From NCBI RefSeq assembly GCF_030684315.1, contig NC_081363.1, positions 15,998,116-16,062,115 on the forward strand: 64,000 nucleotides of DNA, in the 5' to 3' direction. The notes beneath the pieces were generated by a model, which saw only the letters and a program-made list of their open reading frames with translations, had not been told where the DNA came from and did not search any database. Each line of letters opens with the position of its first letter. Position 1 is the stretch's first letter. Source of the DNA: Stegostoma tigrinum (lineage: Eukaryota). The position numbers were made by a program, and so were the translations under genes. Shown here one piece after another: positions 31,180 to 62,150 of the stretch.

Positions 31180-31264
31180 ATGGAGATCGTGTGTCGGCTG
31201 TTGGCAGCCCTCATAACCCTGGGGACTCTGTGCGGTGCTGAGACCGTGAAGTTTCACGAGTGCG
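31180..31264 (+). CDS. NPC2: NPC2-A exon 1 (signal peptide; MEIVCRLL...VKFHEC)
   Basis: AGGATGG start context; G|GTGAGT donor; 85 nt. Confidence 0.93.
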
Positions 31265-34200
31265 GTGAGTGAAAAAACATCGTTTCTTTCTCAGGGAGGA
31301 GAAATATTAGACTTAGACTTAGAATCCCTACAGTGTGGATTTATTTTTTAAAACGTGTTAGAAAATGTTAATTTTCCCAAAAAACCAAACTATTCCGAAG
31401 ATCTAAAGGGAATTAAAAAAAACTTCTTGAACTTTTTATTTTACAAATTCCAAGTGACCTGATGCGAAAACTCTTCAGCTTCAACTCTTAATCTGATGCC
31501 CTTTACAGGCTATAGGTTTTTTTTAATAAAGAGTTTGATTTCAGACGATCGGAAGAGCTTTTCCATAAAAACTGAAAGCTCTAAGGGTCGGTCACCAGAC
31601 CCGAAACGTTAACTCTGATTTCTCTGCACAAACGCTACCAGACGTGCTGAGTTTTTCCAGCAATTTCTGCGTTTGTTCCAGGAGAATTTCTCATCCTTGA
31701 GGTAACGGGACCGGCAGAAATGCTAATCGAAAAAGTAAATGGGACATTTCCTTTTTATTAACAGAACGTATCAGAGTAAGTAATGCTCGTACAACAAAGA
31801 ACTGCAGGTGCTGAAAAATCTGAAACAAAAATTGCTGGAGAAACCCAGCAGGTTCTGACAGCATCTTACGAGAAAGCTTTGTTAACCCTTGAGGGTTACT
31901 GGACTCAAAGTCTTAACTTTGGATCCAGCAGTTTCTGGTTTTGTTTGACTGTAGCTAGGAGTAGCATGTATAGCTCGGGAACGGGTATTGCACGGAGGAT
32001 GTGATTACCCTAGAAAATGTGTAAAGGAAACTTTATGATTTTGCCAAGCATATGAAATCATACAATCCAACTAAAGGTTGGACAGTCGGGGTTTGTTTTC
32101 TTATGATGAGGGGCTGAAGGGACATTTTAAAGGAGGTGTCAACACTAATGGATAGCAAGTGTGAAGAGCCTATTTCTAAAAGCAGAAATGTCAAAGAGAA
32201 GATTCAAATTAATTGACGATAGAAATTATTCATTCAGGATTATGAAGATCTTAAGCTCACTACCTGAAATAATGAGAAAGAAACCCTCGAACATTTTTTT
32301 AAAAATTGAATGGAGATGCACTTGATGCCATGTAATCTAGAGTAATCGATGTGGAAGATGAAATGAGGTGAAACTTAAGCTTTTGAAAGTGTATTTAAAA
32401 ATTGAGCTTTGTGAGGAAGAATAATGTGATGTTATTATTTCTACTTAACATCATATGCTTAGCTGCACTGGCATAATATTTCCAGCATTTTACATTTTGA
32501 CATTTCACTGCTTCATTGTTTTTTTAATGATTTGAACAATTCTGTGGCACCTGTATTGCCCTGTTATGAGTAAGTTATATGATGTGACTACTTCTGCGGT
32601 TATGTATTGTGTCCATCATTGACTCTGTCGGGGAAGATAATGTTTCTATGTAGGATTGCATATTGTTTCTACAGATGATATGGGTTTTACTCTCTAACCT
32701 CAAAATATTGTCTATTTGTGACTGAGTCCTCTAACAACAAAAGTCAAAGATACCATTGCACTAGCTGCACACTTTGACTCAGAATGTCTGAACTTCTTGT
32801 TAAATTACTATGATTAGAATATTAGCCTTACTTTCACTTATCAGCACTTATTTTCCACCCCTAATTGCCCAGAACTTAACATTCAACTGTTGCAGCCCAT
32901 GTATTGTAGGCATACCCAAAGTGGTGTTGTGGAGTTTGTTTTTTGACTCAGTCACATGAAGAAACTGTATTTGAAATCTTTAAATAAGACAGTGATTGTT
33001 CCAAGTCAGGATGGTGTGTGGCTTGGAGTGGAAACTGCAGATAATGTGTTCTATGTATCTGTTACTCTTGTTTTTCTTGGTCATAGATGTCGCTGGTTTG
33101 GAACATACTGTCTAAATGGCATGCCGTGTTGATTGTACACACTGCTGTGTGTTGGTGGTGGAGAGAGGGATTGTTAGTTCGGGTGCCAATCAAGCAAGTG
33201 CTTTGTTCTGGATTGTCGCATCAGAACTGAGCAAATCTAGGCAAGTGGGAAATCATCCAGGAAGATGAGTTACTTGCTGCAGGATTCCTAACCTCTGGCC
33301 CACTTGATCTACATTCTGTGTTCTCATAGCCACCAGTGTTCAAATGGCTAACCCAGTCCAGCTTCTGATCAGTAGTTAACCCAGGATGTTGATAGGTGAT
33401 TCGCAATGGTAATGCCGAGGGGTGGTGATAGGATTCTTTCTTCTTGGTTATCCTCATTCCCAGACACTTGTGTGCTGCAGATGTTACTTACCTGTAATCG
33501 CCCAAAGCCTCTGTCGTCCTTGTCTTACTGCATGCAGACATATACTCTTCAGTTTCTGAGGTGTTACAAATGTTACTAATCATTTGTGCAACCATCAACA
33601 AACCTCTCCACCTCTGACTCCATAATGGCGGGAAGGTCAGTGAAGAGGGTTGGGCCTAGGGCACTACCTGGAGGACCTCCTGCAGTGTTGACCTGTAGCT
33701 GAGCTGATGCATCTCTGCCAATCACGACCTTCTTTTGCACTAGGTACAACTCCCACAGCAAAGAGTTTTACTCCGGTCCCATTCACTCCAGTTTTGCAAG
33801 GGGTCCTTGATGTCACATTCAGTTAAGTGTTATCTTAATGTTCAAGACAGTCACTCTTACTTTCCCCCAGAGTTCTACACTTTTGTTCATGTTTTGACCA
33901 AGGCTGTAAAAAGCCAGGAGTCAAGTAAGCCTGACAGATTCAAACTGAGTAACAATGAGCAGGTTAATGTTGAATAAGTGGCACTTGTTAGCATTATTGA
34001 TGACATCTCATCATTTCTGTCAATGCATTATAGTATATTTTAAGCTATTTTCTTCTCTCCTATTCCAGCACCCATATTTTCCATAAGACTTGTGGAGATA
34101 ATCACTTATGTTGAGCATTGTATTATGGATTCTTTGTATTAGATAACCACAAACAGCTTGTACAAATGCTAGATTGCTGTGCTCTGTTTAAACAGACTGT

Positions 34201-37200
34201 GATTGTTATTAATGAAGTGGCTGCATTGAAAGTCTTCATGTATGCTTGGCAGAACTTTAATTTGAAAATATGTCCAACCACAAAGCTAAATCCTTTTTTT
34301 TCCCCACCCCTCTCCTATTTTCATAAAAGCTTAATCTTCAGATTGTTTTTTTTTGCTGATGTACCTAAACAGAAAAAAGATCTACCAGCCATCTGATTTA
34401 ACAAAAAGCTGATGGACTTTGAACACTGGTATTTTGCTAGTAAGCACAACATTTGTTTCACACTGATTATAGTCCACTAAGCAATGGCACTGAAATTGTT
34501 CTAGATTTTGAAAAGATTTAAAAACCAGAAGTTTCCTGTATTCCTGTCTGCTCAGAACTCTTAGCACCCCCTGTGTGAAAGGGTGCCCATTGTCAAGAAT
34601 CTCCAGTTTATCTACTCGAAACCTTGTGAAATATTGAATATGAATTACCTGGAGCTGACTTTGTGGATTTTACTAGTTACTAGCTCCTGGAAAAGGCCTA
34701 TTTTGATTAAATCAGATGTCTAAACTATTAGTTCCTGTATCTCATGTTACACCATGACCTATATGTTGATGCGCTAAGCATTTTTTCCATACAACTTATG
34801 ACATTGACTCACCCTTGTATTATAGGATCTACAGTTGGAAAAATTCTGACAGTGGAAATAACGCCCTGCCCCACTCTCCCATGTATACTTCGCAAAGGAC
34901 AGACATCTGCTGTGAATGTCACCTTCATCAGCAGTAAGTGTTTTTCTAAATTTAACATTGCAAAAGAAAATTTCCAGTGTATAGGTTCTTGCTTTGTTGG
35001 AAAAGTTATCTTGAAATGCCTGGTAAAAGTGTTCAACAAGTTGCGTGGAGAAACTTTGGCCAATTGGATATAAAATTGGCTTTGACGGTAGGAGACAGAC
35101 GGTGGTGGTAGAGGGTTGTTGTTCAGCTGGAGACCTTTGACCAGCGATGTGATACACTGGGTCCGTTGTTGTTTGTCAATTTATATAAATTGATTTGAAT
35201 GAGAATACAAGAAGTATAGCTCGTAAGATTGCAGATGACACCAAAATTCATGGTATGATGGACAATGAAACAGATTGTCTGAATATACCATGTGATCTTC
35301 ATCAGCTGGACTAATGGGCTGATGAATGACACATGGAGTGTAATTTAGATAAATGTGAGGCATTGCATTTTGGTAATATAAACCAGGGCAAGACATGCTT
35401 AGTTAGTGATAGGGCCGGGGTTGAGGGATGCCTGTTGTCAACAAAGAGACCTAGGGTGCGGGTACATAGCTTCTTGAAAGTGGTGTCACAGGTAGACAGT
35501 TTGTAAAGAAGGTGTTTGGCACGTTTGCCTTCGTTGGACAGACCATTAAGTATCAGAGTTGGAAAATCATGTTGCAGCTGTACAAGATATTGGTGAGGTC
35601 ACGTTTGGATTAGTGCAGTTCTGGTTGACCCATCATAGGAAGGATGTTATTAAATTGGAAAGGGTGCAGAAAGAATACCACTAAGACTAGAAGGTTTAAG
35701 TTATCAGGAAAGGCTGGGACTATTGTCCCTGGAGCATTGGAGGTTGAGGGGTGACGTTACAGAGGTTTACAAAATCATGAGACATAAATGAAGTGAATAG
35801 CCAACGTCTTTTCCCCAGGGTAGGGGAGTCCAAAACTAGAGGGCATAAGTTTTTAAGGTGAGAGAGGAAAGATTTTAAAGTGGAGGTGGGGACCAGCTTT
35901 TTAACACAAGATATATGGATTGAACTGCCAGAGGAAGTGATAGGTACAATTAAAGCATTTAAAAAAATATTTGGATATGTCCATGCATAGGAAAGTTCTA
36001 GAAGGATATGGGCCAAATGCAGGCAAATGGGACTAGTTAAGTTTAGCAAACATGAACGAGATGGACCGAAGGGTCTGTTTCCATGCTGTATGACTTCATG
36101 CCAAATATTTAAATGAACGTATCTTACATAGTAAATAAAAACCAAAAGAACTCTGGATGCTGGAAATCAGGAGTGAAAACAGAAATTGCTGGAAATGCTC
36201 AGCAGGTCTGGTAGCATCTGTAAAGAAAAAAAAGTCAGTTAACGTTATGGGTCCGATGACCCTCCCTAATAACCCTTCTGAAAATGGGTCACCGGACCTG
36301 AAACGTTAACTCTGACTTTTTTTTCTTCACAGATGCTGCCAGACATGCTGACCGTTTCCAGCAATTTGTTTTCATTCCTGATGTATTATATAGTAATCTG
36401 CTATTTTTGCTTTGAAGTTTACTTCCATAATGTGGAAGGATTATGCAAGTTCCACAAGGATTTCTAATTTAAATTTTCCCATTTGAGAACCACTCGCTAG
36501 ATTTGTAGATTTTGTCAAAGAAACTGGAAATGCTTCAAATAACTAATGTATTAAATTGTTTTCTTTACTGAAGAGCCTTTTATAATACCTTTAGTACATG
36601 AACCACATAAGTAAATTTCAGATTTAACACTTACAAAATGCATGTGGTTATTCAGATTTGACAAAATTCTGAACACGTTGCGCATAATATTTATTCTACA
36701 CACAATATGACCCTGAATGTGTCAAGGAAAATACAACTCCCATTCATATACCAGCTATAGAGATGTAGGAGAAGCTTCTGGAATATGCAAGCACCTCAAA
36801 ATTTAGAAGTAAGACAAAAATAAGTAATTATCTGAAAAATACTGGAGAAAGAAGTCAGTATGCAACGTTTTATAATTAAATTAATTGATGATACTGGATT
36901 GAATGAACCCCTAAGTTTAAGCTCTAAGGGTCCAAATAATACACCCCTGATAAATGGTGAATATTGCCTAGAGCGAGAATGGTTGTTCTTATTTTTGAAA
37001 GCAAGGAATTTTGATCTGCATCTAGACTCTGCTGGAGCAAACTTTTTTGTGGTTCTTAATTTTAAAGCACTGGGAAGTGCAAGACACTGACTCATGCTTT
37101 TCCTGATGTCTTTGTTTTGTGTGTTTCCTTCAAGATTCCAAAATGGCAAAGAATGAGATGATAGGTGTGATCCTGCTCCTAAATTGTTCAGAGGATCATA

Positions 37201-40200
37201 GGTGAAGTCTTGAGAATACAAGGACTAACTATTGCAATTTTTTTTCAGAAACCTCAACTAAAACAAGCACAGCTGTAGTTCATGGGATCTTGAATAAAGT
37301 TCCAATTCCTTTTCATATCCCTAATGCTGATGGCTGCAAATCTGGAATTCGGTGCCCCATCCAGAGCAATCAAACCTACCACTACATCAATTCGTTACCA
37401 GTAAAAAGCGAATACCCATCAGTACGTATTTTCATTGTTTCCTGACAAGTATAGTAACATACCTTACAGGTTAATTAGTCATTCTGGCTATTCCATTCAA
37501 CGTAACTGTATTAAAACAAATTTTTATGGCAGCTGGTTGCAAAGAGATTGGTATGTGTTGTATTGAGTAGTTTTTATTTCAGACATTGTGTGTACTTGAA
37601 CATTTTTTACAATTTTCAATTAACTGTAGGATATTTGATTCAAAGACCTGTCATCCAGTTCAACCAAAGCAGTGTTTTGACCATCACATCGATAATTGTT
37701 CTTACTTATGACTGATCTTCTGTATTAGTATCTTTCACATGAACAATGGTTTGAACTAAATAGAAACTGCAACAGTACTGTAATACTACAACTGGCACCA
37801 ACCAGATCGTTGTCTCCTTCAGATTGATGTGAAAGAGAGCTCCACTTTTCTGAACCAAACCGCCTGAATGCCCAATTTCCATCTTTATTTTATATCTGTC
37901 TGGCAAGGGCAATGGGCATTTTCCATTCCTAACTGCCCTTGAAAGTGGTAGTGAGCTGTTTTACTGAACTATCTGGTGTAGATACACTCAGTGCTACTAG
38001 AATTATAATTAGCTTTATAAGACCTTGTCTGGGCTACACTTGGCGTATTGCAATCAGTTCTGGTCACCACAATACAGGAAGGACGTAGAGACTTTTGAGA
38101 TGGTGCAGTAAAGGTTTACTGGGATGCTGCCTGGATTAGAGGATATGAGCTACAAGGAGAGGCTAGAAAAACCCAGGTTGTTTTCTCTTGAGTGGCAGAG
38201 GCTGAGGGGAGACTTCATAGTTGATAAAATTTGAGATGCATAGAAAGGTTGACAACCAAAATCCTTGGTCCCCAAGATGAAATGCCTAATGCTAGGGAGC
38301 ATGCATTTAAGGTGGGGGGGGGGGGAGAGAGAGAGAGAGAGAGAGAGAATCGGGGAGGAAGGTAGGATCAAAGATGATGTGAGGGGCAATTTGTTTTTAC
38401 ATAGTGGTAGGAAACTGGAACACACTGCCTGTGGTGTGGCCCAGGCATATATGATAGTGACATTTAAGGGACTTTTAAATAAGCACATGCATATGGAAGG
38501 ATATGAATCAAAGGCTGGCAGAAGGAATTAGTTTAATTTGGTGTCATGTTCGGCACAACATCTTGGGCTGAAGAGCCCGTTCCTGTGCTGTGCAGTTCTG
38601 TGTTCTATGATCCACCAAAGAAGGATGATACAGTTTCCCAAATATTTCCCTGTGCCTTCTGTCCTTGGTCTCAGTGACAGAGATAATATGATGGAAAACG
38701 CTGTTAAAGGATGCTTGAAAATTTACTGCAGTGTATTTTGAATAAGGTTACGTGCTGGTGATGGATGTGATGCCAATCAAACAGGCTCTTTTCTCGTGAA
38801 TAATGTTGAGTTTCTGGAGTGCTATCGAAGCTGCATCCTCTCCAGCATGTGGAGAATCATGTTATACACCTTACTCAATGTTTGCAAATGATAGACAGGC
38901 TTTGAGGAGTCTGTAGGTGTTGCTCTGGACTAAATTCCCAACCGCTGACCTGCTGTTGTCACCACCTACGCTGGAGGACAGAGTTCAAGATCTGAAGTTG
39001 AGGAAATCCATGTTGAGTACAGAAAGCTGTGATGGACACAATTTTAAAAAGTGAAATGGTGATCTTTCAGCTTGTGTTGGGTTTTACTGAAGCATTGCAG
39101 CAGACCTAGGTCAGAAATCTGAACATGGAAGTGAGATGGTACATTGAAATGGCATTTGACTGGAAGGTACTGTCATGATTGCAGACCATGTAGGATTGTG
39201 TTTGTAAGTCATCTCCACACTGCAGAGGTGACTGTATTGTGAGTAGCAAGCTCCTGCTTCAGTGTTGCGGGTTTTGAACAGTGAAGAATAAGGAGGGAAA
39301 AGGGCAAATGTTATACGTCCTGCAATTGCATTGGAAGGTGCTATGGCAGGGGAAATGAGGTCATGAAGTGGAGCAGCTTGTCATGGAATGAATGGTTCCT
39401 CTGCAAGGCTGACAGGGGAGAGAAAACCTGTTTGGTTGTGGCACTAAGCTGAAAGTTGTGGAAATGGCAGAAGATAGCCTTTGAATATAGAAGGTGGAGG
39501 TGTGGAAATTGGCAAGGAGAACTCTGTTTGGTTCCATGAGGCAGGAGAGTAGGGGTCGGGCCTGAAATGTGGGAAATGGGTCCAACATGATTAATGGTTC
39601 TGTCGATCTCAGTAGCTGGAATCGAGATAAGGAAAAGAGGGCATGTTGGAGGAGCCATTATTGAAAGTAGCATCTAGGCAGTTGTGATGGCATGGTATCC
39701 TCGTCGGAAGTGCAATTGAGATAGCTGTGGGAGTCTATGGGTTTGTGATGAAAGTTAGGCAGCCTGTTCCTGGAAATGGAGACTGAAGCAAAGGACCAGT
39801 CTAGTGGACCAGATGAAAGTGAAGAAAATAAATCAAGGGGGGAGAAAAATAATTGATTCTGTGAGAGAGCAGGAAACTACACTGATACAGCCATTGATTT
39901 TACTGGAAAAAGACATGTGTGAGAAACTCAGTAAGACTAGACAGTTATAACTAAGTCCCGTACAGGTACCCACAACCACATATGTATTTGCCTGTGTATG
40001 TTTAGATTTGAGATTTACAACATATTGGAACTTCCAGTTTGGTCACCACTGATAACGGACAGCACGTGACTGGTAATTTGGCAGCAATAAATGAATGTCT
40101 AAATTGTAATTATTTCACTCAAACAGCTCTGACATGCTATGACACATTCTCATGGCAGATGAGTCTTGAACCCAGCCCTTATGGCTCAGAAGGGAGGGAC

Positions 40201-40452
40201 AGTACTACTGACATAAGAACCTCAGTTTACAATTAGAAATGCTATAATACAGTGACTAATAACTTCATGGTTGAACTTGCACTCTCAGATGCACATGTGA
40301 TTACATTTGTTTATGGCAGTGATATTAACATCTGATTTTCTTTTTCAACTTTTAACACTTCCCAGATTAAATTGGTGGTTTCATGGGAACTGAAGGATGA
40401 AAATGACCGCAGTCTTTTCTGCTGGAGAATCCCTGTCCAGATTACCGATTAA
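31180..40452 (+). CDS. NPC2: NPC intracellular cholesterol transporter 2, copy A (ML domain; whole gene)
   Basis: join(31180..31264,34826..34933,37249..37421,40366..40452) = 453 nt, 150 aa. Signal peptide, six mature-domain Cys, motifs PCPxxPC, VNVTF, DGCKSGIxCPI, [14 protein letters not shown] and FCWxIPVQI. GT-AG introns, phases 1,1,0. Confidence 0.96.
34826..34933 (+). CDS. NPC2: NPC2-A exon 2
   Basis: TATAG acceptor, A|GTAAGT donor, 108 nt, [36 protein letters not shown]. Confidence 0.95.
34990..36097 (+). mobile_element. CR1-clade LINE 3' remnant in NPC2-A intron 2
   Basis: Degenerate RT ([19 protein letters not shown]) and typical CR1 3' tail. Confidence 0.85.
37249..37421 (+). CDS. 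NPC2: NPC2-A exon 3
   Basis: T-rich CAG acceptor, GTACGT donor, 173 nt, [14 protein letters not shown]...[11 protein letters not shown]...LPVKSEYPS. Confidence 0.95.
38314..38348 (+). repeat. G-run followed by a (GA)n microsatellite
   Basis: About 12 G, then about 11-12 AG dinucleotides. Confidence 0.9.
38975..39950 (-). mobile_element. Old, degraded Neptune-type Penelope fragment in NPC2-A intron 3
   Basis: The translation [33 protein letters not shown] aligns with LRHFRHLQSDPTTQDIFPSPPLSAFRRDHSLRDSL of the 44-kb element. Confidence 0.65.
40366..40452 (+). CDS. NPC2: NPC2-A exon 4
   Basis: CCCAG acceptor; [28 protein letters not shown]; TAA at 40450-40452. Confidence 0.94.
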
Positions 40453-47207: not shown

Positions 47208-47529
47208 CTTTTGTGCTCCTGAGAGGCTGCTGGGCCTGCTGTGTTCATCCAGTCTCACATTTTAGTATCTCATGTTAGGGTTGAGGTGGGATACAGAATC
47301 GTATGGCCATCTAGGATGGAAGAATCTCAGTGACCTGAATGGTCTCATGCTAATTCTGAGACAGTAGAAACTGCCAATGCTAGAGTCCAAGATAACAAGG
47401 TGTAGAGCTGGATGAACACAGCAGGCCAAGCAGGAAAGCGGCCTGAACCGTGTTCGTCCAGTGCTACACCTAGTTTCAGGTCTGGACACTTGCCCACACC
47501 TTGTTACGTCCGGCTGGTTGCGTTGTTGG

Positions 47530-48312
47530 TATGATTGACAGGGATGGGGGCGGGTTTAACATGTGATTGACAAGGTGGCGCGGAGCAGGACGTGACAGGC
47601 AGAGTCGGGACAGGGCGGGATGTGATTGATTGATGGGAAAGGGGCGGGCTTCACGCGTGACCGAGCAGAACGGAGCGGGGTGAGATGTGATTGGCAGGGA
47701 GGTGCCGGAAGCGAGTTGATCGGCAGGGAGTGGGCGGGGCGGGGATGCAGTCGGCATGGAGGGGGCGGTGCGTGATTTGATTGGGAATTGGGTGAGCGGG
47801 GCGGGCATGTGATTGACAGTAAAATGAGGCGTGTGCGAACTGTGATTGGCAGGCGGGGAGAGGATGTGAATTACAAGTAGGGGGCGGGAAGAGATTTGAT
47901 TGGCAAGGTTAGGGCGGGGCGGCACGTAATTGGCACAAGGCGGTGGGGGTAGGGACGTGATTTGCACGTGAACACGACAGGCCAAGCAGCATCTTAGGAG
48001 CACAAAAGCTGACATTTCGGGCCTCGACCCTTCATCAGAAAACTGATTTGCACATGGGGATGGGGCGAGATTTGATTGGCAAGGTATGGGCGGGGCGTGG
48101 ATGCGATTGGCAGGAAGACGGCGGGGGCGAGACAGACTGTGATTGGCAGGATGTGGGCGGGGCGTGGGTGTGATTGGCAGGAAGCTGGCAGGGGCGGGGC
48201 GAGGTGTGATTGGCAAGGTGTGGGCGGGGCGTGGAAGCGATTGGCAGGAACACGGCGGGGGCGGGACAGAATGTGATTGGCAAGGTGTGGGCGGGGCGGG
48301 GATGTGATTGGT
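47530..48312. promoter_or_regulatory. NPC2-B promoter: tandem array of ~24 CCAAT/TALE-box + GC-box units (30-36 bp)
   Basis: Unit approximately TGTGATTGGCARGNNNNGGGCGGGGCG; CpG-rich; ends about 235 bp upstream of the NPC2-B ATG. Confidence 0.85.
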
Positions 48313-48547
48313 TGGAAGTAGCGGCCCGGAAACATGTTGAAGTGAGAGCGGGAAGTGGTGTGGGCCCGCGCCCGGCGCTGCTGACGCCGAACGGGCGGGG
48401 TTTGGTGGTGTCGGTGTTGTAGCTGTACCAATCCTGCGGAGCTGCTGAAGTGAATCCTGTGGACAGGGCCCCGGAAGGCCTTCCGGCAGAGTTTATCAAA
48501 CCACACCCACAGTAGGCTGTCCTTTTAACTCTCCTGGCCTTGGCGCT

Positions 48548-48632
48548 ATGGAGGTTCTGTGTCGCCTGTTGGTCGCTCTCCTGTCCCTGGGGGCCCTGTG
48601 TGGGGCTGAGCCTGTGAAGTTCGTGGAGTGCG
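48548..48632 (+). CDS. NPC2: NPC2-B exon 1 (MEVLCRLL...EPVKFVEC)
   Basis: GCTATGG start context, G|GTGAGT donor, 85 nt, signal peptide. Confidence 0.93.
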
Positions 48633-51600
48633 GTGAGTGACGAGGGGCAGAGGAACAGGGCTTTGTGTGTTCAAGAGGTTCAATTCCTTTATCTTCCCTA
48701 ATATCTGCTGTTAAAACCCCTCACTGATTCAGTTATACAAAACTCCACACCCTGCTGCAACTTTTTTAATGCACTTCTGCCTCTTTTAAGTAAATTTCAA
48801 TGATACAAAACATTGAGGTATCTAATAAGCAGTTCCACTGTAACGTAATGGAATTTAAGAGAACTATTTGGCTGCCTCCACTGTTTGTCAAGATATTGTA
48901 TTGAAGATAGTTAGTTGTGGTGTGACTAATGTTCATGCTGCAATGTTTTTCAAAAGCATGTGATCCTTTTGAACGGTAGACAAGTAGGAGGCTGGAAGCT
49001 GGACTGAAGAAGGGTAATTCCAAAATGTTGACTTCTACTTTCCTCCGGACGCTGCCCTGCTTGCTGTGTTCTTCCAGCTTCCTGTTTGTCTCCCTTCCAA
49101 AGGATCACACGCTTTTAAAAAGTGATACAGTATGAAGACAGTCAATTCTCGGAGCAAGTAAGATGAACTGACACTTGATGTAATCACAGTCCACACCAAC
49201 ATTAGCTACATCACAGTCAGCAGTTTTCTTTTGTCTCTGATCCTTTGAAAGATATTTCCAGGTGATGGTGCCAACTAAGTGCTCTCTGAGTAACTTCAAT
49301 TTTCTCTCGAGTTTAGCCAACTGAATAAACTCTGGAAAGTTTGAACATGAATTATAAGGAATAGCTAGACTGTCAAAACTTGACATTTTGCTTAAAGCTG
49401 TTTTACATTCTGTGGGCAGACAACAAAGTTACCCAGAGTTTCCTGCAGTGAAAGAGAATTTCAACCTGACTCCCCCCTATTGTTAAACTTCTGCATGGAC
49501 ATCTCAAGTTGTAAATTTAATGCTCATCTTGCCCTCTGTGCTCGTTTTGCAACCATGGCCTTGTATTCTTCTGAGGAAGGGCCATCAGACTTGATACATT
49601 AACTTTTTTTTCCTTCTCCATTGCTCCCAGACCTGCTGAGCTTTTCCAGTAACTTTCTTTTTGTTCCTGATTTACAGCACCTGCAGTTCTTTCCATTATT
49701 ACAATGTATTCTTTGCTCTGCTCTGTTATGCTAATGCATCTTGTATAGTATAGTCTGGCTGTGCTGCACTCGAAACAAATCTTTTCACTATCTAGGTATG
49801 TGATAACAATAAGTCAAGTCCTTTAGTCTCCACACTGCTAAAGCTATTGATTAAATTCACTTTATTACTTTTACACTTGAATACTATCACTTTATGGGAC
49901 GAATTTATTCCATTGCTTATCTCGTGAGGAAAAAGTGACTTTACCTATAAAAGTCCACAATCAACCTGATAACAGCACTGTTGCTTTGGATCCATTCTAG
50001 AACTTTTCTGCTGATAGCTTCTCTGATCCTTACGGTGAAGTATTTACAAGGTTTTGCGTTGTACAGATGGGAGCTGTTGGATTAAATGTTAAACGAAGGT
50101 GGATGTCGAAGATTTTGTGACATAACTTGAAAGGGGCAGGCAGTTACATAGCATATACATCATGAAAAACTGTCACTTTTGTCCAATGGCGGTGTTTGTT
50201 CTCCACTTTACTGACTCAACCCCAATGACTTCTATTCTCTCAACTGCACCAGTGCAATTTCTCCAACAGCTCCTTGCGGTAGCAAGTTGAGTGAGTTATT
50301 TGTGACACATCTAGGATACAGTGAAGTGTTTTACCGCCACAATCCAGCATCATTGCGTTCCAAAAAGAATGGAAAGAAATTACATAAGTAGTTAATTTTC
50401 TGTACAAGGGGTCTTCAGATACTGTTCTGCAATGTGTCCCAAGAGTTCCCACTTCGGGTACAGGAAGCAATGACCTGTCAAGAGCCCATGTTTCAGGCCT
50501 ACCACAGCCAGGGCATCCTGCATCAGACACCATCACCACAGCCAAAGACCTGCTGAGCCCAGACTTGGGGCCTACTGCAGCCAGGACTCTTTGTTTCAGG
50601 CAACACCACCACTACCTGCTGCAGTTGACATCCTGCCAACACCACCACTCCTGACTTTCCTGTGACGCCAGAAGATGAAGAAAAGGTGGTGGGCGGGGGG
50701 TTAGGGAGGAGGGAAAGAAGGAAGGAAGGATATGGCTGGCCTGGAGCAGACAGGCTCAGGAGCTGTTACCATGCCGGCACTGCCATATTGACGTCTTTTC
50801 TTCGTTATTCTCCCCATTCTTGGGCTAACACAATTTCTGATTTCAGTCCTTGATTTACAGACTGTTTGTTTATTTTGGCTTCTGATTTTGCTGCATGCTC
50901 TTTATAATCTTCCATGACTTTAACAAACTCTATTAGGTCACTCCTTTCAATCCGATCACTCCTGACATTATCTGAATCTTCTGTTATCTGGGCAATATTC
51001 ACTAGTTGGAGAAAAATGCCAAAATAGATTATTTTCAAGCAAAACAGGAAACAAAAATGGACTTTTTTGATTGGAGAAAAGGAGGAGGAGAGGGGACCTA
51101 ATTGAGGTATACAAGATAATGAGAGGCAGAGATAGTTGATAGCCAGAGACTATTTCCCAGGGCAGAAATGGCTAACACGAGGGGTCATAGTTTTAAGCTG
51201 GTTGGAGGAAAGTATAGAGGGGATATCAGAGGTGGGTTCTTTACACAGTTGAGAGAGCATGGAATGCGTTGAGCAGTTGTGGAAGCAAGGTCATTGGGGT
51301 CATTTAGGAGACTGCTGGACATGCATATGGTCACAGAAATTTGAGGGTGCATACATGAGGATCAATGGTCGGCACAACATCGTGGGCTGAAGGGCCTGTT
51401 CTGTGCTGTACTGTTCTATGTTCTATGTTTCAGGCTTGTCTCTTCCTTGGGATTGGAAGGAAGACTGACAGAACTGAGACACCTTGAGAACTCGTCAGAC
51501 TTGGTGTGTTAACTGACTTTTGTCTGTCCATAGATACTGCCCAACTTGAATGTTTCCAACTTTTCAGTTTTTGTTTTCAGATGTCTGTTGTTTGTCTTTA

Positions 51601-54600
51601 TTTGTTGTTTGTGAAACATGGTGTGAAATTTACCTGCTTCACTTCAAGCATGTAATGACAACACTTGACAAACAAGCCATTTAAATGGAAGTACTTCTTG
51701 TGCTTTTGTCATTTACAGAAAGTGTAGTCACATCAGTGTTTGTGTGCATTTGCTTATTGCACAGTTGTCTTTGTTATACACTTACTGTTAATTTGGGTTT
51801 GCTATAATATATTGTACAAAGTTTCAAACTTGCAAAAGTGAGATGAATCAGCCATGCAAGTGGAATCCAATTCTTTTTGTGGTCTTGTTTTAGTTTCTCT
51901 TCCTTATTTCTCTCTGTTCTCACTTTCTGGGCAGAATAGTGCACTGTACACTTGCCATGTATTTGTTGTTATAATGTGGACTATAGTAATGTAAAACTTC
52001 CTCAGGTGATTTTGAACTGTAAAGTATGCGTTTCTGTGCTTTTCTGTGATGCCAATCTGCTGAGGGAAGCAACTAAGGAAGATTGTTTTTTGACATCAGA
52101 CAAACTCCAGAAGACTTTCGTAATGGTGATAAGTTACATTTTGCTTCTAACAGCTTTCTGTCACCAAGGTGTCCTTGATTCTAAAGAAGCCATCCAATTA
52201 TCTTTAAAGTACAACAAATTTGTATATGATGTGTGTTTGGAAGGTGGTGATCATTCTATTTGTGGGCAGCATGGTGGCTCATTGGTTAGCACCAGGGACC
52301 CAGGTATGCTTCCAGCCTCAGGCAACTATCTGTGTGGAGTTTGCACATTCTGCCTGTGTCTGTGTGGGTTTCCTCCAGGTGCTGCAGTTTCCTCCCGAAG
52401 TCCGAAGATGTGCAGGTTAGGTGGATTGCCCATAGTGTCCAGAGGCATGCAGGCTAGACAGATTGACCATGCGAAATGCGAGGTTGCAGGAATAGGGTAG
52501 GAGGGTGGGTCAGGGGGGAGTGGGGGCGGGGTGCGGTGGCGGGGTGCACTGTGCTTTTTGGAGGGTCGGTGTGGACTCAATGGACTGAATGACCTGCTTC
52601 ACGCTAGGGATTCTGATTCTATTTCAAACCATCCGGCACTCTGCCTGGAGCTACTTGTTAATGTCATCAGTTTCTATTATTTTCTTTATTCAACACAGCC
52701 CCCTTTTTCACCTTGGTCATCATGTTGATTGGGACCACTTAGCTTATCCTCGACCCTAAGCACCCCTCACCTACAGCACTGCAGGCATTTCAGACTTCCT
52801 GATCTTCTCGTAGATCAACGTTTTCTGACTCAAATCACGAGTTAGTTTCCGGCACTGCTAAAGTCACAAGTTTATTTTTAGACAATGCAGATAAGTGTTT
52901 CACATGTATATTTACTTAAACCTACTGTTATATGGCACCGAACTTTGTGCTGTTCCTCTTCGTTTTAGATGAGCTTGTGAAAATACCATGTACTGATGTT
53001 TAATGGAGCTTCAGTGCTTTGGTTTAGAAGTTATAAGAGGTACTTTTACTTTGTCTGCTGAGAATATTGATTGGGACCATCCACAATATGGTTGGCTGCT
53101 GTTTGCCTGTTGCTGTGATGCTCTTCATTGGAATTACTTAATGTCGATTAGACTTATTAGCCTTCTATTGACCTGGATGAGTATTCTAGCTGGATTAGTT
53201 AACTCTGAGCAACGTCACAATTGGTGAGCCAATGGATGTTGAGAATTTCATGGTTTCACAGTCACCTTTTATTGACAATACCTTTTTTATTTCATTTCCT
53301 CTTTGTACTCAATTCAATTTCTAGGACAACGATGGTGTAATTTGAATTTACACTATCTGCATTATTAATCTGGGTAACTGGTGAAAAGCAGGTATTGTTC
53401 TAATCTCTGCAATTAGTCACATCTCCATTCTTGAACTAACTAGCTACTGGCTTGTCATTATTCAGATGTACATCTGTAATGTTAGTGTGGAATCATCAGC
53501 AAACAATGTTTGGCACCATTCGGTGTCCAAGGAGTCAAATGCTGACAGTCCATTGTCTAGCAAGACTTGGACAACATGCAGCCAGGGCTGATAAGTGGCA
53601 AATAATGTTTGGGAGACACAGTTGCCAGGCAACTACCATCTGCAACAAGAGAATCTATACATCTTCTACTGACAATAATGCCGTTTATATCAGATTTCTG
53701 GGATTTAACCTCGACCAGAAGCTGAACTGAACTAGCTAGATAAATTGGCTACAACAGCAAGTCAGAGGCTAGGAATCCTGCAATGAATAACTCTTCCCTT
53801 GATTGCCATAAACCTTTCCAATATCTATATGACACAAGAGTGGGTTGAATACTCTTCACTTGCCTGTATGAGTCCAACTGCAACAATGTCCAGGATAAAG
53901 TCATGTTTGGCACCCCACCTTCAACATTCCCACCTCTACCTCCTGTGTTGGCAATATGTATGAGCTATAATACGTACTACCATGACTCAGAGCCTCCTCC
54001 AACAGCACCTTCCAAACTCAAGACCTCTAGAACCACCTAGAAGAGCTTTTTAATTTAAGTGCTTTAGTCTATTTTTAATCAACCAATTATTTTACTTGTC
54101 ACCCTGAGCTGCAGTTCATAACTTTAAATTTCTTCTGCTTCGAGGATAACTTTCTAGCTTTTGTGGTTGCATTTTCCTGTTACCAGCTACTTTTATGCCT
54201 GGAATTGTTGATAATGTTGATCTCCTCCAAATGACCCCAGACTGTTGAAACCAACCTAGGCTCTGATGCTGTGGCATGTTGGTTTACGCTGTGGTTGTCA
54301 TTTGTGCTAAACATTGCTCAAGATCCCCAGTAGGGATCAAAACAGTAATTTTGATTGTATTCCTGCAATATATTAGTTTCTAATTCAACTTTAAGTACAG
54401 CTGTCTGTTGTGTTTCTTGCCACACTACAGTGGTTCTTCAGAATCCTTTGGCTTTGCATAGCATGCAAGTCAGGTTTATGTGCAACTGGGTGTGGTTAAC
54501 AGGATGGCTTTTTTCTAAATAAAAACTACAGATGCTGTAAAACAGTTCTGAGGAACGGTCACCGGACCCAAAACGCTGACTCTGTTTTCTCCTTCACAGA

Positions 54601-57600
54601 TGCTGCCAGATCTCTTGAGCTTTTTCAGCAACTTTGTTTTTGTGGCTTATCTCTAAACTGTGAAACTGCCCTAGGTTGAATAGATTTCTAAGACTCATCC
54701 ACAGTTTCCAAAGTTAATCAGGAATATCATAGTTTTTTTATAATATGAAGAGTCAGCATGCCCATTTATGCGGTGAACTATCAATGTCCTGAACCTCTAG
54801 CAGTGGCATTATGTTATAAATACATTGTTCTTTTGCAATGAGGGTAACATTGCTTTCCTTAACATACTCGGTTCCTAAGTTTGCTGACTTTACTACTTTT
54901 ATACCTCATCTGCAAATGTCCCCAAAGGGTTGTCTTTGGTTACTTCACCTCAAAATCGTCACACTGAGCATCACTCACCTCACCTATGTCTATAATAGTT
55001 TGTGTTTTCTGTGCAAGGTTATGATAAAGTAGTTTAGAACCCAGTTACTGTTTAATATTTCCACATGGCAATTTCATGTGTTGTGAAACTGCTATTATGA
55101 AAACAGTCATGCGATTAATCAGTAATCGTGTTGCTGCAGATTACATGGAAAAAAATAACTTAAAATCTTTCATTCTAGATGTAATCTCTTGCTTTGAATA
55201 ATTTTCTGTTACATCACTGCATGTAGTTTATCCATCCAATGCATCCAACTTCTGTTAATTGCCTGTGTGTCTACCTGAGATAAGTGGTATTAACTTTCCG
55301 TTGTTATTACAGAGTCTACAGCAGAGCAAATCGTAGTGGATATCACTCCCTGCCCTCTTCAACCATGTCAACTTCGCAGAGGGCACATGTACAGTGTGAA
55401 TGTCACCTTCACTAGCAGTAAGTGAAATGATAAAAACAAATCTGGATTTGAAAGGAAACTTTTACATTGAATTCACCTGACGTATTATCCTAATCAGTGG
55501 GGCCTAGCCTCACTATATACGTTATTATGTATGTAAGCACCTCTCAAACATGAGTTAACAGCTTACACTTACACAGTAAGAAGGTAAAACGTAATTGACC
55601 TCCTTACCAGCCTGCTGGCTCCAGGGACACTGGACACTGCAAAGGCCACGGGCCCTGATGACATTCCAGCAATAGTACTGAAGATTTGTGCTCCAGAACC
55701 TGTTGGTCCCCTAGCCAAACTGTCTAGTACAGTTATAATACTGGTATCTATCCAGCAATGGGGAAAATTGCCCAAGTATGTCCTGTACATACACAGCAGG
55801 ACAAATCCAACCCAGCCAATTACCTCCCATCAGTCTACTCTCCATCAGTAAAGTGATGGAAGCTGTCATCAACAGTACTATCAAGCAGCACCTGCGCAGT
55901 GGTCCCTAGTGTGGTGAATACTCTCCATTTGCTAGGATGCGTGCAGCTCCAACAACACTCAAGCTTGACATCTAGGACAAAGCAGCCAGCTTGACTGGCA
56001 GCATATCCACAAGCATTCACTCTATTTCCCCCCCCCCCCCCCAACCCGAAGTAGCAGCAGTGCATACTGTCTATAAGATGCACTGCAGAAATTCACCAAA
56101 GGTCCTCAAACAGCACCTTCTAAACCCATGACTACTTCTATCTAGAAGGACAAGGGTAGCAGATACATGTGAATACCACCATCTTCAACTTCCCCTCCAA
56201 GCCACTCACCATCCTGACTTGGAAGTACGTCCCTGCTCTTTCAGTCACACGGCCAAAATCCTGGAATTCCTTCCCTAATGGCATTGTGGGTCAACTCACA
56301 GTAGGTGGCCTGCAACAGTTCAAGAATGCAGCTCACCACCACGGGCCCAGCTAGTGACATCCACATCTCATTCCTAGTTCTTACGGTCTTGTGAAAATAC
56401 TTAATGACCCAGCCTCGGCAATGGCCTGTCTTAAAGAATTCCACAGATTCACTACACTTTGTGAAAAGAAATTCTTTCTTATCTCTATCTTAACAGATCA
56501 ACCTCTTACTCTGAGATTATGCCCCCAGGTCCTGCACTTACCCATTGTGGGGAAGCAGCCCCTCTGTGCCTGCTCTATCAATTCCCTGGGAATCTTTTGT
56601 GATTTAATAAGGTCTCCAATGAAAGTAGGCTCAACCTCTCCTAATAAGACAATCCTCCCACGTGCAGGATCAACTAGGTGAACCTTCTCTGGACTGCCTG
56701 CAATGACAGTTCGATCTTTCTCACTTAAGGGGGAAATGTTGTTTCTGATGTTTCAAGCGTGCAGTAAAAATTTACAGGAATGTTGCTGGGACGAGTGGGT
56801 TTGGGTTGTCAGGAGAGGCTTTTTACCACTTGGAGACTCTGAGGCTGAAGGGTGGCCTTGTAGAAGTTTTATAAAATTATGAGGAGCGTAGGTAAGTTGA
56901 ATAGTTATGGTCTTTTTCCCAAGGCAGGGGAGTCTAAAACTAGATGGCACTGTTTTAAGTTGAGTAATCTGAACCCCTACAAGGCACCAGATAGACCGTA
57001 CTTGTAGAGTCATATGTTAACGAAATAGACCCTGGTTTGTCCAACTCGTCCACGTGGATCAGGTTTCCTAAACTGAACTAGTCCCAATTGGCCCATGTCC
57101 CTCTTAAACCCTTCCTATTGATATACCAATCCAGAAACACTTTAAATGTTGTAATCGCACCAGTCCCCATCACTTCCTGTGGAGCTTGTTCCATGCACGC
57201 ACTACCCTCTGTGTGAAAATTTGCCCCTTAGGCCCCTTTTAAATCTTTCTTCTCTTTAAACCTATGGCCTCTAGTTTTGGACTTCCGTACCCTGGAGAAA
57301 AAGGCCTTGGCTATTCGCTGTATCCAAGTCCCTCGTTGATGTATAATGTGAATAGTTGCGAACACAGTGATGATCTCTAGAGTACCTCAGGTTGGTGGCT
57401 GCCATTGTGAAAAAGAACTCTTTATCCCCATGCTCTTTTTTTTTGTCAGTCAGACAATCTTCTGTCCCTGCTGACACCTTGCCTGTGATTTTTTTTTAAT
57501 GTCAGTGGTGTCCCACACTTAAGTCTTTTGTTTGTCATGAAGCTTTGTAAATAATTAATTGGACTGTGATTACATTCAACCTTTTACTCTCTGCAGCATT

Positions 57601-60600
57601 ACCCTTAACAATCTGTGGGAGTTTTTGAAAGTCACGTTCGGACACTAATTGTGGATTTTAGGATAAAACAGAAATATCTGCCCAGAAGATCAGAATGTAA
57701 AAGTTTTGGAAAAGACTGAAAGCAAATTATTGCATTGTCTCATGTGATCATCCACACTTTCATTTTATATAATTAAAGAAACTTTTGCTACCTATATTGA
57801 TAATAGTTGCAAGCGTACCCTCAAGTTTGTTTCCTCCCATTTGGCCATCATTTGTTGACTTTTAAACACTTTCCCAATCATTTACACAATATATGTTTTT
57901 ACTTTCAACTTTACCTTGTCCTTAATTTGCCTGGCTAGCCATGCTTGGCTAAACCATTTCCTAGTATCTTCCTCTCTCGTTGGGATATATCCATGTTTTG
58001 AATCATGAGCTATTTTCTGAAATGTCTGCTCATTCCTTAAGCATCTTTTCTGCTAAACTCTTCTCAGTCCATTCCAGCAAACTCTACCCTCATTCATTTA
58101 TCATTACCCTTATTAAAGCTTAACATTGTTGTTTCAGACTAACGTTTCACCCTGTGAAACTGAATGCTAAATGAAAATCATGAGCTTTGATAATGTGAAC
58201 AGCCAAAGTCTTTTCCTAAGGACAGGAGAGTCTAAAAGTGGAAGGAATAGGCTTAAGGTGACAGGGGAAAGATTGAAAAGGGAACTGAGGGACAACTTTT
58301 TCCAGAGTGTGGTGCGTGTATGCCAGAGGAACTGGTAGAGCTGGGTCCAGTTACAACATTAGAAAACATTTGGACAAGTACATGAAAGGAAGGGTTTAGA
58401 GGGATGTGCTGGCAAATGGGACTAGTTTAGTTTTGGATACCTAGTTGACATTTTAGAGTTGGATTGAAGGCCCTGTTTCCATGCTGTGACTCTAATTGAA
58501 CAGAGGAAACAGATTTACACCTCCATGGTTGGCAAATATCAAACAAATGAGATATTAAAATTTAACATTTTTTAATTTGTTGCAGAGCCAATTCAATACA
58601 GTCTGCTTGATTGACAGATTTAACTGGTTGTAGTTAGTAGCCCCTTGGATAGTATATCTCATTGATAACTTTTGTGTTTCTATTCTAGTAGAGATCTAAA
58701 AAGCCAATTGACCAGCAGAAATTAGGACTCAACAATAAAAACAAACTGAAAGTTTGATCTTGATATCAAGAATCTGGCAGCGCAAGTTCAGTATTTGACA
58801 AAAGGAGTTAATATTAGGGCACAGAAGATATATTGTTAATACCCAAAAGTCAGGTGGTGGAAAGTGGATTATGTAAATAGGTATACATTTTTTTAAAAAG
58901 TTGCAAGAATCCTTTGAAGACCATGAGATCAACAGCAAAAAGAGAAGTAAACTTTGAGAAAATGCTTGATTGTATTTGCAACTTGGAGGAAGCTGTGGAG
59001 GGACACAATTCTTTGAGAACTCCATGCAGTCATTGGAAGTACAGAAATGGAGAAAGTGCTGACGGTGTTTGATATGAATCACCTGAATCAGAAATGTAGT
59101 TTACTGCTAGATTTCGAACCAGAACCGAACTGAACAGTATAATTTAAAGCAGTATGTTTTGATTAAAAAATAATTTGGAAAGATCTTGTTAACACTTCTG
59201 TTATAGCAGATGAACAGATGAGATTGAATATGGAAAAGTTCATGGTCACCATCCTGGAATAATGTTGCAGGGATATGTTGAGCACGATAAAGTCTAATTG
59301 CTCCAAATAATTTTATCAATGCTGTAATCATTGGAACATCGAAACAGAGCATGTTGTGATTTTCCTGCATCAGATTAGTGTGTTTCAATTGTTGCTGTCC
59401 CTGAGGAACTCTCTTTGGCCTCATTTTGACCAGTGCCTTCAGCTCAAGTTGTAGAGATGAGGAAAATAGCCAATTCTGCAATCCAAAGAAAATCAAAAGT
59501 TAATTTCCTAGTAATTTAGGACTAGAATTTAAGGAAAAGGATAAGGAAAAGCTTTGACTTTTAAATGTTGATAGGAAATAGCAAGGAGGAGGTAATTGCT
59601 GCATTGAGTGAGCTGTATAGTTGCATAGCTTAACATGTTGAACTGAATGATGTTTGTGACATCAGTCATCCAGATTCTTTTAGCTATTAAGTACATTTGT
59701 CTTTCTAGCATTAGTTTTAGAAGTACTTCATATTGTGTGGCCTTAGAAATGGGGCTAGACTAGAGGCGAACCAACTGAAGTTTATTCATTTTCACTTATT
59801 GCTAAGTTTTTAATATTTACTTGTAGCTTATTAAAAACTGTAACACTGTTTTGCCTTGGGTATGATTTGGATTGCCATCACCAAAAAAATTTGTACAATT
59901 GTATTGCTATTCTGTCTTGTTCTCTTTAATCCCTAAAGTAGAATTTAATCTCAGCTCTAGTTGACGGCAGAATGCCCCCTTGCTGTGCTGTTGCCAACTG
60001 AAATTTAGTTTCAGGTTGAATTCCAATTGTCACAACACAAATAATGACCAAGATTTGAAAGATATCCATGGTGTCAGGAGATTAGTTCATGGACAGTGGC
60101 AATTCAGCTGTTTATTCTGGTAGAATGCAGCATCTGACTTTTGCTTAAGTGTGAAGTGTTTCTAAACTAACTTCCTTAAATTTTCATTACTGCTGATGTG
60201 TCAATTGAAATGTATTCAAATGCCAGAGTGGATCTGAGTCTTCCTATCTTTTTATGCTTTTATCTCAAACCAAGTGATAGATCTGGAAATTGCAGGCAAG
60301 ATTGTGTATCTTGGATGTAACTTTTTTTCTTGTAATCTGATTTTCAGCAATCTCGAGTAGTACCAGCAAGGCTGAGATTTATGGTATCTTATCTGGAATT
60401 CCAATTCCATTTCATATTCCTAATTCTGATGGTTGTAAATCTGGGATTAAATGCCCCATCCAAAAGAATGCGAGGTACAGCTACGTGACTTCATTACCAG
60501 TAAAAGACGCATACCCAACAGTAAGTGTTTAATGAAGTGTTAAAATGCAGAATAATATCCCTTGTGCTTGATCATTCTGTGGCCTATTTGCTCAGCAAGG

Positions 60601-62150
60601 CCAGAAAAAACTTTGTTGGTCAAACAGTGTGCTTTATTCTGTGAATAAGTGAAACCATTTGGAACAGATTTGATGGTCAAAACCCCTGGCCTGTATTGAG
60701 GGGACTGTCATTCTAACTCTATCTGGTGATCCTTGGCTCAGTGAGAATGATTTGTGAGGTAATTTTGATTGGTCTGTTGATTAGATTAGATTCCCTACAG
60801 TGTGGAAACAGTCTCTTCGGCCCAACAAGTCCACACCGCCCCTTGGAGCATCCCACCCAGACCCATCCCCCTTTAACCCTCACACTCCTGAACACTACAG
60901 GCAATTTAGCATGGTCAATCCACCTGGCCTGCACATCTTTGGACTGTGGGAGGAAACCGGAGCAACAGGAGCACCCGGAGGAAATCCATGCAGACATGGG
61001 GAGAATGTGCAAACTCCGCACAGTCGCCCGAGGCTGGAACCAAACCCAGGTCCCTGGCGCTATGAGGCTGCAGTGCTAACCGCTGAGCCACCGTGCTGCC
61101 AATGTTTCAAATTTTTTCACCTGGATGAGATCAAAATCACATGGCTTACCAAATATGCCATTCAGGACTGAAATGAGGAAGCATTTCTTAACTGAGTTGT
61201 GAACCTGTGGAATTCTCTGCAACAGGAAGCTGTTGGGACCAGTTCATTACATATATTCAAGAGGGAGCTGGACGTGGCCCTTGTGGCTAAAGGGATCAAG
61301 GTGTATGGAGAGAGGAAGGGAATGGGATACTGAGATTGCATGATCAGCCATGAATGTAGTGAATGCTAATTTAGGGTCGACGGGCCAAACGGCCACCTCC
61401 TGTACACATTTTCTGTTTGTTTTTTAAACAAACCTTGAACTAGAGGACTGCATTAGCTGAATGACCAGTTTGAGAGAGTGCAGTGGCTTCAGAGGCCTAA
61501 GCATCAAAAGGTGTAGATGAGGTTGCAGATTAGCATTTCCACAGCTGCAAAGGTGCATGAAGGGCCAAAAGATTGACAAGTCGTGTTTTAAAGTGAGTTT
61601 TCTTGCTAAACACAGTTGGGAGGAGAGCAGTAGCAAGGAGTGATAGCAGCTGGCCTGTGGTTGACTTGAGATAATGGGAACTGCAGATGCTGGAGAATCT
61701 GAGATGATAACGTGTGGAGCTGGATGAACACAGCAGGCAAAACAGCATCTTAGGTGTACAGAAGCTGATGTTTCAGGCCTAGACCCTTGCGCAAGTGATA
61801 CCATGTGATTGGAGAGAAATATCTTTTAAATGAATCCGACCAATTTATACATAGTTTTGGGTAAGATGCTATTTCTACTTCTCAATGCACCTGACTTGTG
61901 GATGCCACTGCTGCAGTGAAACCGGTGCCTGAGAATGTGCTTTGCATGTTAGATTTTAAATTACTGTTGAGAAATGTAGGGGATGTAGTGAGGTTTTTCT
62001 AAGATTTTAAACCTCTTCTGCTTTTAATGTTCCCTCATTCCTTCTCACCGCCACCCTACCCAGGTTAAGTTGGAGGTTAAATGGGAACTGAAGGATGACG
62101 ATGACAAAGATATCTTCTGCTGGAAGATTCCAGTCCAGATTATTGTCTAA
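48548..62150 (+). CDS. NPC2: NPC2-like paralogue, copy B (ML domain; whole gene)
   Basis: join(48548..48632,55313..55417,60348..60520,62064..62150) = 450 nt, 149 aa, with no stops or frameshifts. Same intron positions and phases as copy A; six Cys retained; one codon shorter in exon 2. Confidence 0.94.
52265..52620 (+). mobile_element. tRNA-derived V-domain SINE (HE1-like)
   Basis: tRNA-like head with A-box (TGGCTCATTGG), V-domain TGTGTGGAGTTTGCACATTCT...GGTTTCCTCC, CR1-like tail ending GGGATTCT. Confidence 0.85.
55313..55417 (+). CDS. NPC2: NPC2-B exon 2
   Basis: TTACAG acceptor, A|GTAAGT donor, 105 nt, [35 protein letters not shown]. Confidence 0.94.
55600..56372 (+). mobile_element. Second LINE family (CR1/L2 group) remnant
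   Basis: [23 protein letters not shown] and [17 protein letters not shown] (RT upstream motifs). Related remnants at ~5860-6770, 22540-22830, 32840-34010, 53470-54040 and 62840-64000. Confidence 0.8.
60348..60520 (+). CDS. NPC2: NPC2-B exon 3
   Basis: TTTTCAG acceptor, GTAAGT donor, 173 nt, [15 protein letters not shown]...[11 protein letters not shown]...LPVKDAYPT. Confidence 0.95.
60783..61100 (-). mobile_element. tRNA-derived V-domain SINE (HE1-like)
   Basis: Reverse complement starts GGCAGCACGGTGGCTCAGCGGTTAGCACTG; same body as 52265-52620. Confidence 0.88.
62064..62150 (+). CDS. NPC2: NPC2-B exon 4
   Basis: CCCAG acceptor; [28 protein letters not shown]; TAA at 62148-62150. Confidence 0.94.
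   Translation, partial: VKLEVKWELKDDDDKDIFCWKIPVQIIV

Follow-up and report, generated by a model that had tools for sequence, protein, structure and literature searches.

A minisatellite of CCAAT and GC-box modules as a putative part of the promoter of a duplicated NPC2 gene in the zebra shark

One of the two NPC2 genes of the zebra shark Stegostoma tigrinum, the duplicate NPC2-B, whose function is cholesterol transport, is preceded by an old, G-rich minisatellite that, judging from its sequence, is probably a part of the promoter of the gene. The window that we analyzed, a stretch of 64,000 nucleotides, also includes NPC2-A and ISCA2 (Table 1). The array shows a gradient of age, from decayed distal units, through the insertion of a mobile element, to a younger 31+36-bp dimer that was doubled beside the gene, and its CCAAT and GC-box columns have changed less than its linkers. 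The pattern of CpG and motifs fits what may be an unmethylated and moderately constrained promoter with multiple CCAAT and GC boxes. We propose that a single module of ~30 bp, duplicated locally again and again just upstream of NPC2-B, gave rise to the minisatellite, which would now form the upstream part of a TATA-less CpG-island promoter. The eight proximal units would be CCAAT sites of moderate affinity (for NF-Y, or for NFI on the overlapping TTGGCA) alternating with GC boxes for Sp/KLF factors. They may keep the region unmethylated and poor in nucleosomes, and feed a start site in 48340-48480 with the help of the ETS sites of the unique segment. The outcome would be a broad, housekeeping-type expression of NPC2-B.

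The preliminary description of the locus had reported about 24 tandem units of 30-36 bp. The tandem array was recovered, but it has 23 original units of 24-36 bp, and 24 cores were counted because one of them was duplicated around an insertion. The final ATTGG ends 237 bp upstream of the ATG of NPC2-B, close to the earlier estimate of ~235 bp. All eight gene-proximal ATTGG were confirmed, at 48075, 48106, 48142, 48173, 48209, 48240, 48276, and 48307 (the positions first given were those of the preceding G), and their spacing alternates strictly, at exactly 31/36/31/36/31/36/31 bp. The 67-bp dimer and the 134-bp higher-order repeat were also found by TRF, with periods of 31, 36, 67 (82% matches), and 134 bp (89%) over 48062-48318; the distal part of the array went undetected by this program. 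Being a head-to-tail minisatellite in a putative promoter, the array has the structure of a promoter VNTR.

Table 1. Features of the locus, in positions of the window
Feature	Position	Strand	Description
ISCA2	ATG 29787	-	two conserved peptide motifs, at 13467 and 10778
Second GAnnGAC-11bp-CCAAT composite	29893..29915	-	ISCA2 promoter; full NF-Y flanks
DECA-11bp-CCAAT composite	30012..30034	-	ISCA2 promoter; full NF-Y flanks; includes the proposed seed
Degenerate ~60-bp tandem array	30380..31000	.	between ISCA2 promoter and NPC2-A exon 1; CpG o/e 0.29; internal control
NPC2-A	31180..40452	+	four coding exons, GT-AG introns, 150 aa
Young Penelope-like retroelement	43563-46282	-	open frame, RVT_1 match, terminal repeats with CUGAUGA-stem-GAAA hammerhead-like core
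CpG island	47391..48580	.	array, proximal segment, and start of exon 1; 200-bp criterion
Whole minisatellite	47532..48313	+	23 units, 24-36 bp; each a TGATTG(G/A)CA-type core, then a G-rich/GC-box segment
Distal older part	47532..47967	+	units 1-14 and core of unit 15; two exact PBX-PREP decamers (47532, 47810)
10-bp target-site duplication	47958..47967 (left), 48044..48053 (right)	+	direct repeat around the 76-bp fragment
Dispersed-repeat fragment	47968..48043	-	76 bp, inserted into unit 15
Proximal higher-order repeat	48062..48318	+	31+36-bp dimer duplicated as 134-bp block
Last core	48305..48313	-	only full RRCCAATSR NF-Y consensus in array
Unique proximal segment	48314..48547	+	234 bp; probable TSS and 5' UTR; GGGCGG 48393, CCAAT 48428
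NPC2-B	48548..62150	+	four coding exons 48548-48632, 55313-55417, 60348-60520, 62064-62150; GT-AG introns; 149 aa

The motifs are unevenly distributed along the array. An exact ATTGG core is found in only 13 of the 23 units and an exact GGGCGG in 14. The proximal repeat has ATTGG in 8/8 cores and six of the seven full GC-box matches of the array, and its two 134-bp copies are identical at 110 of 123 aligned bases (13 mismatches). The distal units are more degenerate, as had been noted: units 1-15 have a mean pairwise identity of 64%, and five of these 15 carry the exact ATTGG. The exact decamer TGATTGACAG is present in two distal units, also in agreement with the earlier reading, and a third copy lies inside an intron, at 58608. 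When the region 47530-48312 was shuffled with preservation of dinucleotides, none of 1000 shuffles reached the observed counts of TGATTG (15 vs a mean of 0.9), GGGCGG (17 vs 3.1), or GATTGGCA (10 vs 0.13). The count of ATTGG/CCAAT (14 vs ~3.6) was reached in 1/1000 shuffles and, in a separate run, in 0/5000. At core positions 8-9, 19 units retain a CA (20 if a shift of one base is allowed), more than retain the ATTGG itself; this CA is not predicted by the NF-Y consensus and is common to the NFI and TALE motifs.

Between the array and the ATG, the unique segment has ETS-like sites at 48326, 48351, and 48471/48486, and no match to a TATA box. An upstream ATG at 48334-48345 opens an ORF of three codons, which a start site 3' of that ATG would avoid. 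No Rfam family matched the 64-kb window at the gathering score; the four weak matches in 47100-48600 are far below it, and none lies within the array.

The insertion in unit 15 and its 10-bp duplication were absent from the preliminary description. The core variant in the duplication occurs nowhere else within the array than at its two copies. The 76-bp fragment has 17 further matches in the window, at 78-96% identity, and its family corresponds to the terminal repeats (174/179 identical) of a nearby element, which has an open frame of 599 codons with a weak match to the reverse transcriptase profile RVT_1 (E=1.6e-6, just under the cut-off). We infer that the fragment is a piece of the terminal repeat of a Penelope-like element. 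The term hammerhead-like comes from the visible core motif and from PMC4209133; the fold was not recovered in any of four folded copies of the inserted fragment (z between -0.6 and 0.6), and Rfam lent it no support. Fragments of the same family also form inverted pairs at 47394-47475, 21969-22115, and 1862-2019. Between the two NPC2 genes, at 42078-42725, lies an element that resembles a solo LTR: its ends are TG...CA, and a direct repeat of 4 bp flanks it.

The GC box has a footprint of 10 bp, and its columns were fixed accordingly for the comparison of motifs with linkers. The NF-Y site was fixed at the 9 bp reported in PMC11802806. Between the two copies of the 134-bp block, 3 of the 13 mismatches fall in the 66 motif columns among 123 (P=0.020, or 0.031 when stratified by base type). 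An earlier mask built from hexamers gave 2/13 mismatches in 64 columns (P=0.005), and the ATTGG columns alone gave P=0.087. Among nine related units, we counted 5 changes in 38 motif columns and 20 in 29 linker columns (P=2e-4), and the invariant columns cluster together (P=0.0012 with free placement of the window). These smaller values are inflated, because the units have not changed independently of one another (unit 19, for example, resembles a 31/36 hybrid), and the cleanest test remains the one with P of about 0.02-0.03.

These differences have to be weighed against the idea that the array is a largely neutral passenger. The working promoter would then be the unique 234-bp segment with the last one or two units, and a module prone to form G-quadruplexes would have expanded by slippage and unequal exchange in DNA that was already unmethylated, so that its CpGs would persist without selection on the array. 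Several observations agree with such a history, which we nevertheless regard as unlikely. G4Hunter scores are at least 1.2 in 40% of the 25-nt windows of the array vs 2.7% window-wide, a second array free of these motifs sits upstream of NPC2-A, the distal units have decayed, and the sole full NF-Y consensus is in the last unit. The 76-bp insertion was tolerated, which counts against a role of the array as a promoter, and the unique segment, with its own ETS, GC, and CCAAT motifs, might be sufficient as one. Furthermore, 12 of the 13 mismatches between the blocks involve A or T, so a mutation bias could protect the G/C columns. However, the contrast between motifs and linkers holds within the A/T columns (P=0.035-0.046), within the G/C columns (P=0.003-0.012), and in the stratified test, which counts against the passenger reading. 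In favor of the array acting in the promoter, NPC2-B is intact, with a dN of 0.25 vs a dS of 0.65.

CpG islands span at least 500 bp, with a GC content of at least 55% and a CpG o/e of at least 0.65, and overlap the 5' end of a gene. With the 500-bp criterion, the island of NPC2-B extends over 47261-48740, reaches exon 1, and passes these thresholds; the array makes up most of it. The young retroelement passes them likewise (44181-46070), and high CpG alone is therefore insufficient for a promoter reading. The CpG o/e of the array is 1.14, and still 0.92 when the GC boxes are masked, vs 0.21-0.22 in both flanks and 0.31 in the window. The early observation that CpGs are retained here and decayed in other repeats was corroborated: the two 134-bp copies both retain 9/9 CpG columns, vs 25/92 in 32 repeat pairs from outside the array with 87-93% identity (P=2.5e-5, an optimistic value since these pairs overlap in family and are not independent). 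At the older 67-bp offset, two comparisons each show a transition at 4/7 CpG columns, which counts against the promoter reading. The retention extends to 1 kb upstream of the ATG of NPC2-B and stops at the edge of the array, an extent that speaks against a mere passenger. Yet, it could result from adjoining a promoter rather than from being one. In the zebra shark, methylation is reported to fall near TSSs (PMC13047888); the main text of that study does not mention NPC2, and its searchable supplements mention neither NPC2 nor ISCA2.

How old is the array? No two units are identical; the best pair shares 94% of its bases and adjacent units 51-78%. The youngest pair of blocks is separated by 0.11 (all sites) to 0.20 (linkers) substitutions, around a sixth to a third of the dS between the paralogues. 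A mutation rate of 7e-10 per generation has been reported for callable non-repeat DNA in the epaulette shark (PMC10587355). The divergence of the blocks, together with this low rate, suggests that the youngest duplication is an old event and that there is no ongoing expansion, with the caveat that repeat DNA may mutate faster. The distal units, at 64% identity, may date from about the time of the gene duplication. Since no two units are identical in the one haplotype at hand, the promoter tunable by copy number that had been proposed is doubtful as a present-day property. The array resembles the VNTR upstream of MAOA (reviewed in PMC12776774) as a minisatellite in a putative promoter, where it can determine how many factor sites and CpGs are present. 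Unlike such VNTRs, its neighboring units are only 51-78% identical and its youngest blocks differ by 11%, making high variation in copy number unlikely. It looks like an array that is slowly turning over, not a hypervariable one.

The layout of the array, with CCAAT boxes in the same orientation and GC boxes between them, is that of multi-CCAAT promoters. Direct CCAAT repeats separated by GC boxes are a described NF-Y arrangement, with spacing peaks at 24-28/35-37 bp (PMC4889920) or, for double CCAAT boxes, at 31 bp edge-to-edge (PMC4982600). The 31/36 bp from start to start correspond to gaps of 26/31 bp; the two papers measure differently, and at least one of the spacings fits the convention of either. 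Like the NF-Y/Sp1/Sp2 promoters described in these papers, the array has CCAAT boxes about three helical turns apart in a TATA-less CpG island. Unlike them, it has eight to thirteen boxes that arose by visible tandem duplication, instead of two to five unrelated ones, and most of its boxes, putative sites known from their sequence, lack a purine of the consensus and share bases with an NFI half-site. The NF-Y consensus is given as RRCCAATSR (PMC11802806). Its full flanks are present in just 1 of the 13 ATTGG cores, and 10 of the 13 miss the first purine only, with a T in its place; for comparison, 3/4 CCAAT boxes of the ISCA2 promoter have full flanks. TTGGCA, the NFI half-site, is contained in 11 cores. 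As a monomer of NFIA is reported to bind TGGCA half-sites with an affinity similar to that of full sites (PMC12830966), NFI is a real candidate competitor of NF-Y for these cores. The full NFI palindrome does not occur in the 64-kb window.

The sequence does not support a part of TALE proteins, invoked from the decamer: its exact form occurs in two distal units and in none of the eight proximal ones. A CLEAR/E-box reading was rejected: there is no exact TCACGTGA near NPC2-B. CATGTG occurs in two distal units and once more by the insertion, whose junction also created the sole CACGTG.

The gene upstream of NPC2-A is presumably ISCA2, a label taken from two peptide motifs on the minus strand rather than from a family search. 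The preliminary description had suggested that the array was seeded by a 12-mer of the ISCA2 promoter, which is indeed found inverted at 30027-30038. Exact matches of at least 12 bases are nevertheless shared in 75/500 and 40/500 shuffles and in 6/40 real tiles of the window (the promoter tile included), and the 12-mer is explained as the DECA half of a composite whose geometry is absent from the array. The PBX/PREP-NF-Y-Sp2 composite, GAnnGAC-11bp-CCAAT, has been reported in mammals and zebrafish (bioRxiv 10.64898/2026.02.16.706105). The whole window has two of them, both within the ISCA2 promoter and oriented like ISCA2 itself, where ~0.013 were expected; none is in the array, and spacers of 9, 10, 12, and 13 bp gave none. 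This suggests that the geometry may be in use in sharks as well. The array shares the vocabulary of factors with these neighboring composites, but never their 11-bp geometry: its decamer and CCAAT are alternatives that differ by one base, at the same position and on opposite strands.

The array might still descend from a piece of the ISCA2/NPC2-A promoter that was carried along in the duplication and amplified, keeping a TALE and NF-Y logic, sterol control by SREBP, and tuning by copy number. We hold this to be highly improbable. The composite at 30008-30038 has one core variant of the array on one strand and the other variant on the opposite strand, and the unit profile has no better match outside the array (E=0.23). 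This likeness could equally well come from the convergent use of common motifs; the divergence of the distal units would make the timing possible. Against this origin stand the 12-mer within chance expectation, the lack of composites in the array and of identical units, and the lack of consensus SREBP sites, as two SRE consensus patterns have no exact match in the whole window, the array included (degenerate SREs, which exact patterns do not cover, are possible). Human NPC2 is, for its part, reported as a target of SREBP-1 (PMC10528745). The claim that the duplicate left a promoter shared with ISCA2 holds in one part, as we found no homology of the array to the DNA upstream of ISCA2 and NPC2-A. 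The sharing itself is conjectural: the ATG of NPC2-A is 1164 bp from the last CCAAT box of ISCA2, with a CpG-poor repeat between them, and has its own small CpG island. When the DNA upstream of NPC2-B was aligned locally with that upstream of NPC2-A and ISCA2, nine of the ten strand-wise alignments were unremarkable (at least 21/200 shuffles as good). The tenth (score 37; 0/200 shuffles) was rejected, for it runs over an AGGG microsatellite, and 7/410 real tiles, its own among them, score as high or higher.

The repeat between ISCA2 and NPC2-A serves as a control within the locus. It has eight anchors, 42-72 bp apart with one double gap, and its halves align with a score of 81, vs a maximum of 37 in 300 shuffles; TRF at a score of 30 did not detect it. 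It has no CCAAT or GC-box motifs, has lost its CpGs, and is unrelated to the NPC2-B array.

Could the array come from a mobile element? NF-Y sites and G-rich motifs are found in the 5-17 repeats, each of ~41 nt, of the U3 of human LTR12, which drives host genes (PMC11853044), and a similar enhancer repeat of an LTR or of another mobile element might have been co-opted as the promoter of the duplicate. The array has in common with LTR12/ERV9 its position upstream of a host gene, its tandem units of 30-40 bp that each combine a CCAAT with a G-rich motif, and the existence of unit subtypes. The TGTTACG at 47502 also resembles the start of the LTR-like element at 42078. Unlike these elements, the array has no matching terminus with a target-site duplication before exon 1, no polyadenylation signal (AATAAA/ATTAAA) in 47450-48550, and no GATA element that we noted. 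Neither blastn nor the unit profile found a second copy in the 64-kb window, the best outside match having E=0.23. A mobile origin is quite improbable. It is possible, although we would sooner doubt it than assert it, that the promoter of an ancient duplicate was built from scratch out of a minisatellite of host and not retroviral origin, which was then renewed from its gene-proximal end while selection kept the CCAAT/NFI and GC-box columns, linkers drifted, and distal units decayed.

The ingredients of this locus are already known from promoter repeats, multi-CCAAT arrays, and LTR12, and the array offers a clean natural case that is open to test, not a new mechanism. Among the literature matches listed, from a collection that covers few subscription papers, there was no shark NPC2 promoter and no CCAAT/GC-box promoter of a duplicate gene born from a minisatellite. 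Where the promoters of tandem duplicates come from, and how promoters with regularly spaced CCAAT and GC boxes are born, are questions still debated, mostly on the basis of end states. This locus offers a legible genealogy of units, with an insertion to mark time, and, for comparison, the neighboring paralogue and a control array that decayed. If the promoter was indeed built from scratch, it would be a frozen time series of the birth of the NF-Y/Sp spacing grammar, readable across shark genomes. A whole-genome methylation dataset of the zebra shark is published (PMC13047888) and B-type NPC2 genes are annotated in at least 10 shark species, which makes the key tests cheap.

Both NPC2 genes have intact ORFs of four exons. 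The protein of NPC2-B is a 100% match to the S. tigrinum RefSeq entry XP_048394311.1, and the ML domain (PF02221) scores above the cut-off for exon 3 in both copies (two of the four exon pieces scanned). NPC2-A and NPC2-B have 63% protein identity, with a dS of ~0.65 and a dN of ~0.25, and their similarity by blastn is confined to exons and interspersed repeats. We built a tree of 31 rows with named references, leaving out unnamed matches and most matches from bony vertebrates. NPC2-A clusters with the 150-aa proteins of Carcharodon, Cetorhinus, Mustelus, Scyliorhinus, Heptranchias, and Pristiophorus (support 85/95), and NPC2-B with 149-aa proteins (85/94); the second protein of Heptranchias has no placement in this tree. 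Several species have consecutive accessions for A-type and B-type NPC2. This best tree and the paired genes in other sharks point to a duplication that would date to early shark evolution, although a formal test did not reject one restricted to carpet sharks (p-AU 0.075). The stem branch of the B-type proteins of carpet sharks is long (0.2, where most shark branches measure 0.01-0.1), possibly reflecting accelerated change after duplication. Neither shark type includes the three ray NPC2 proteins, which group together.
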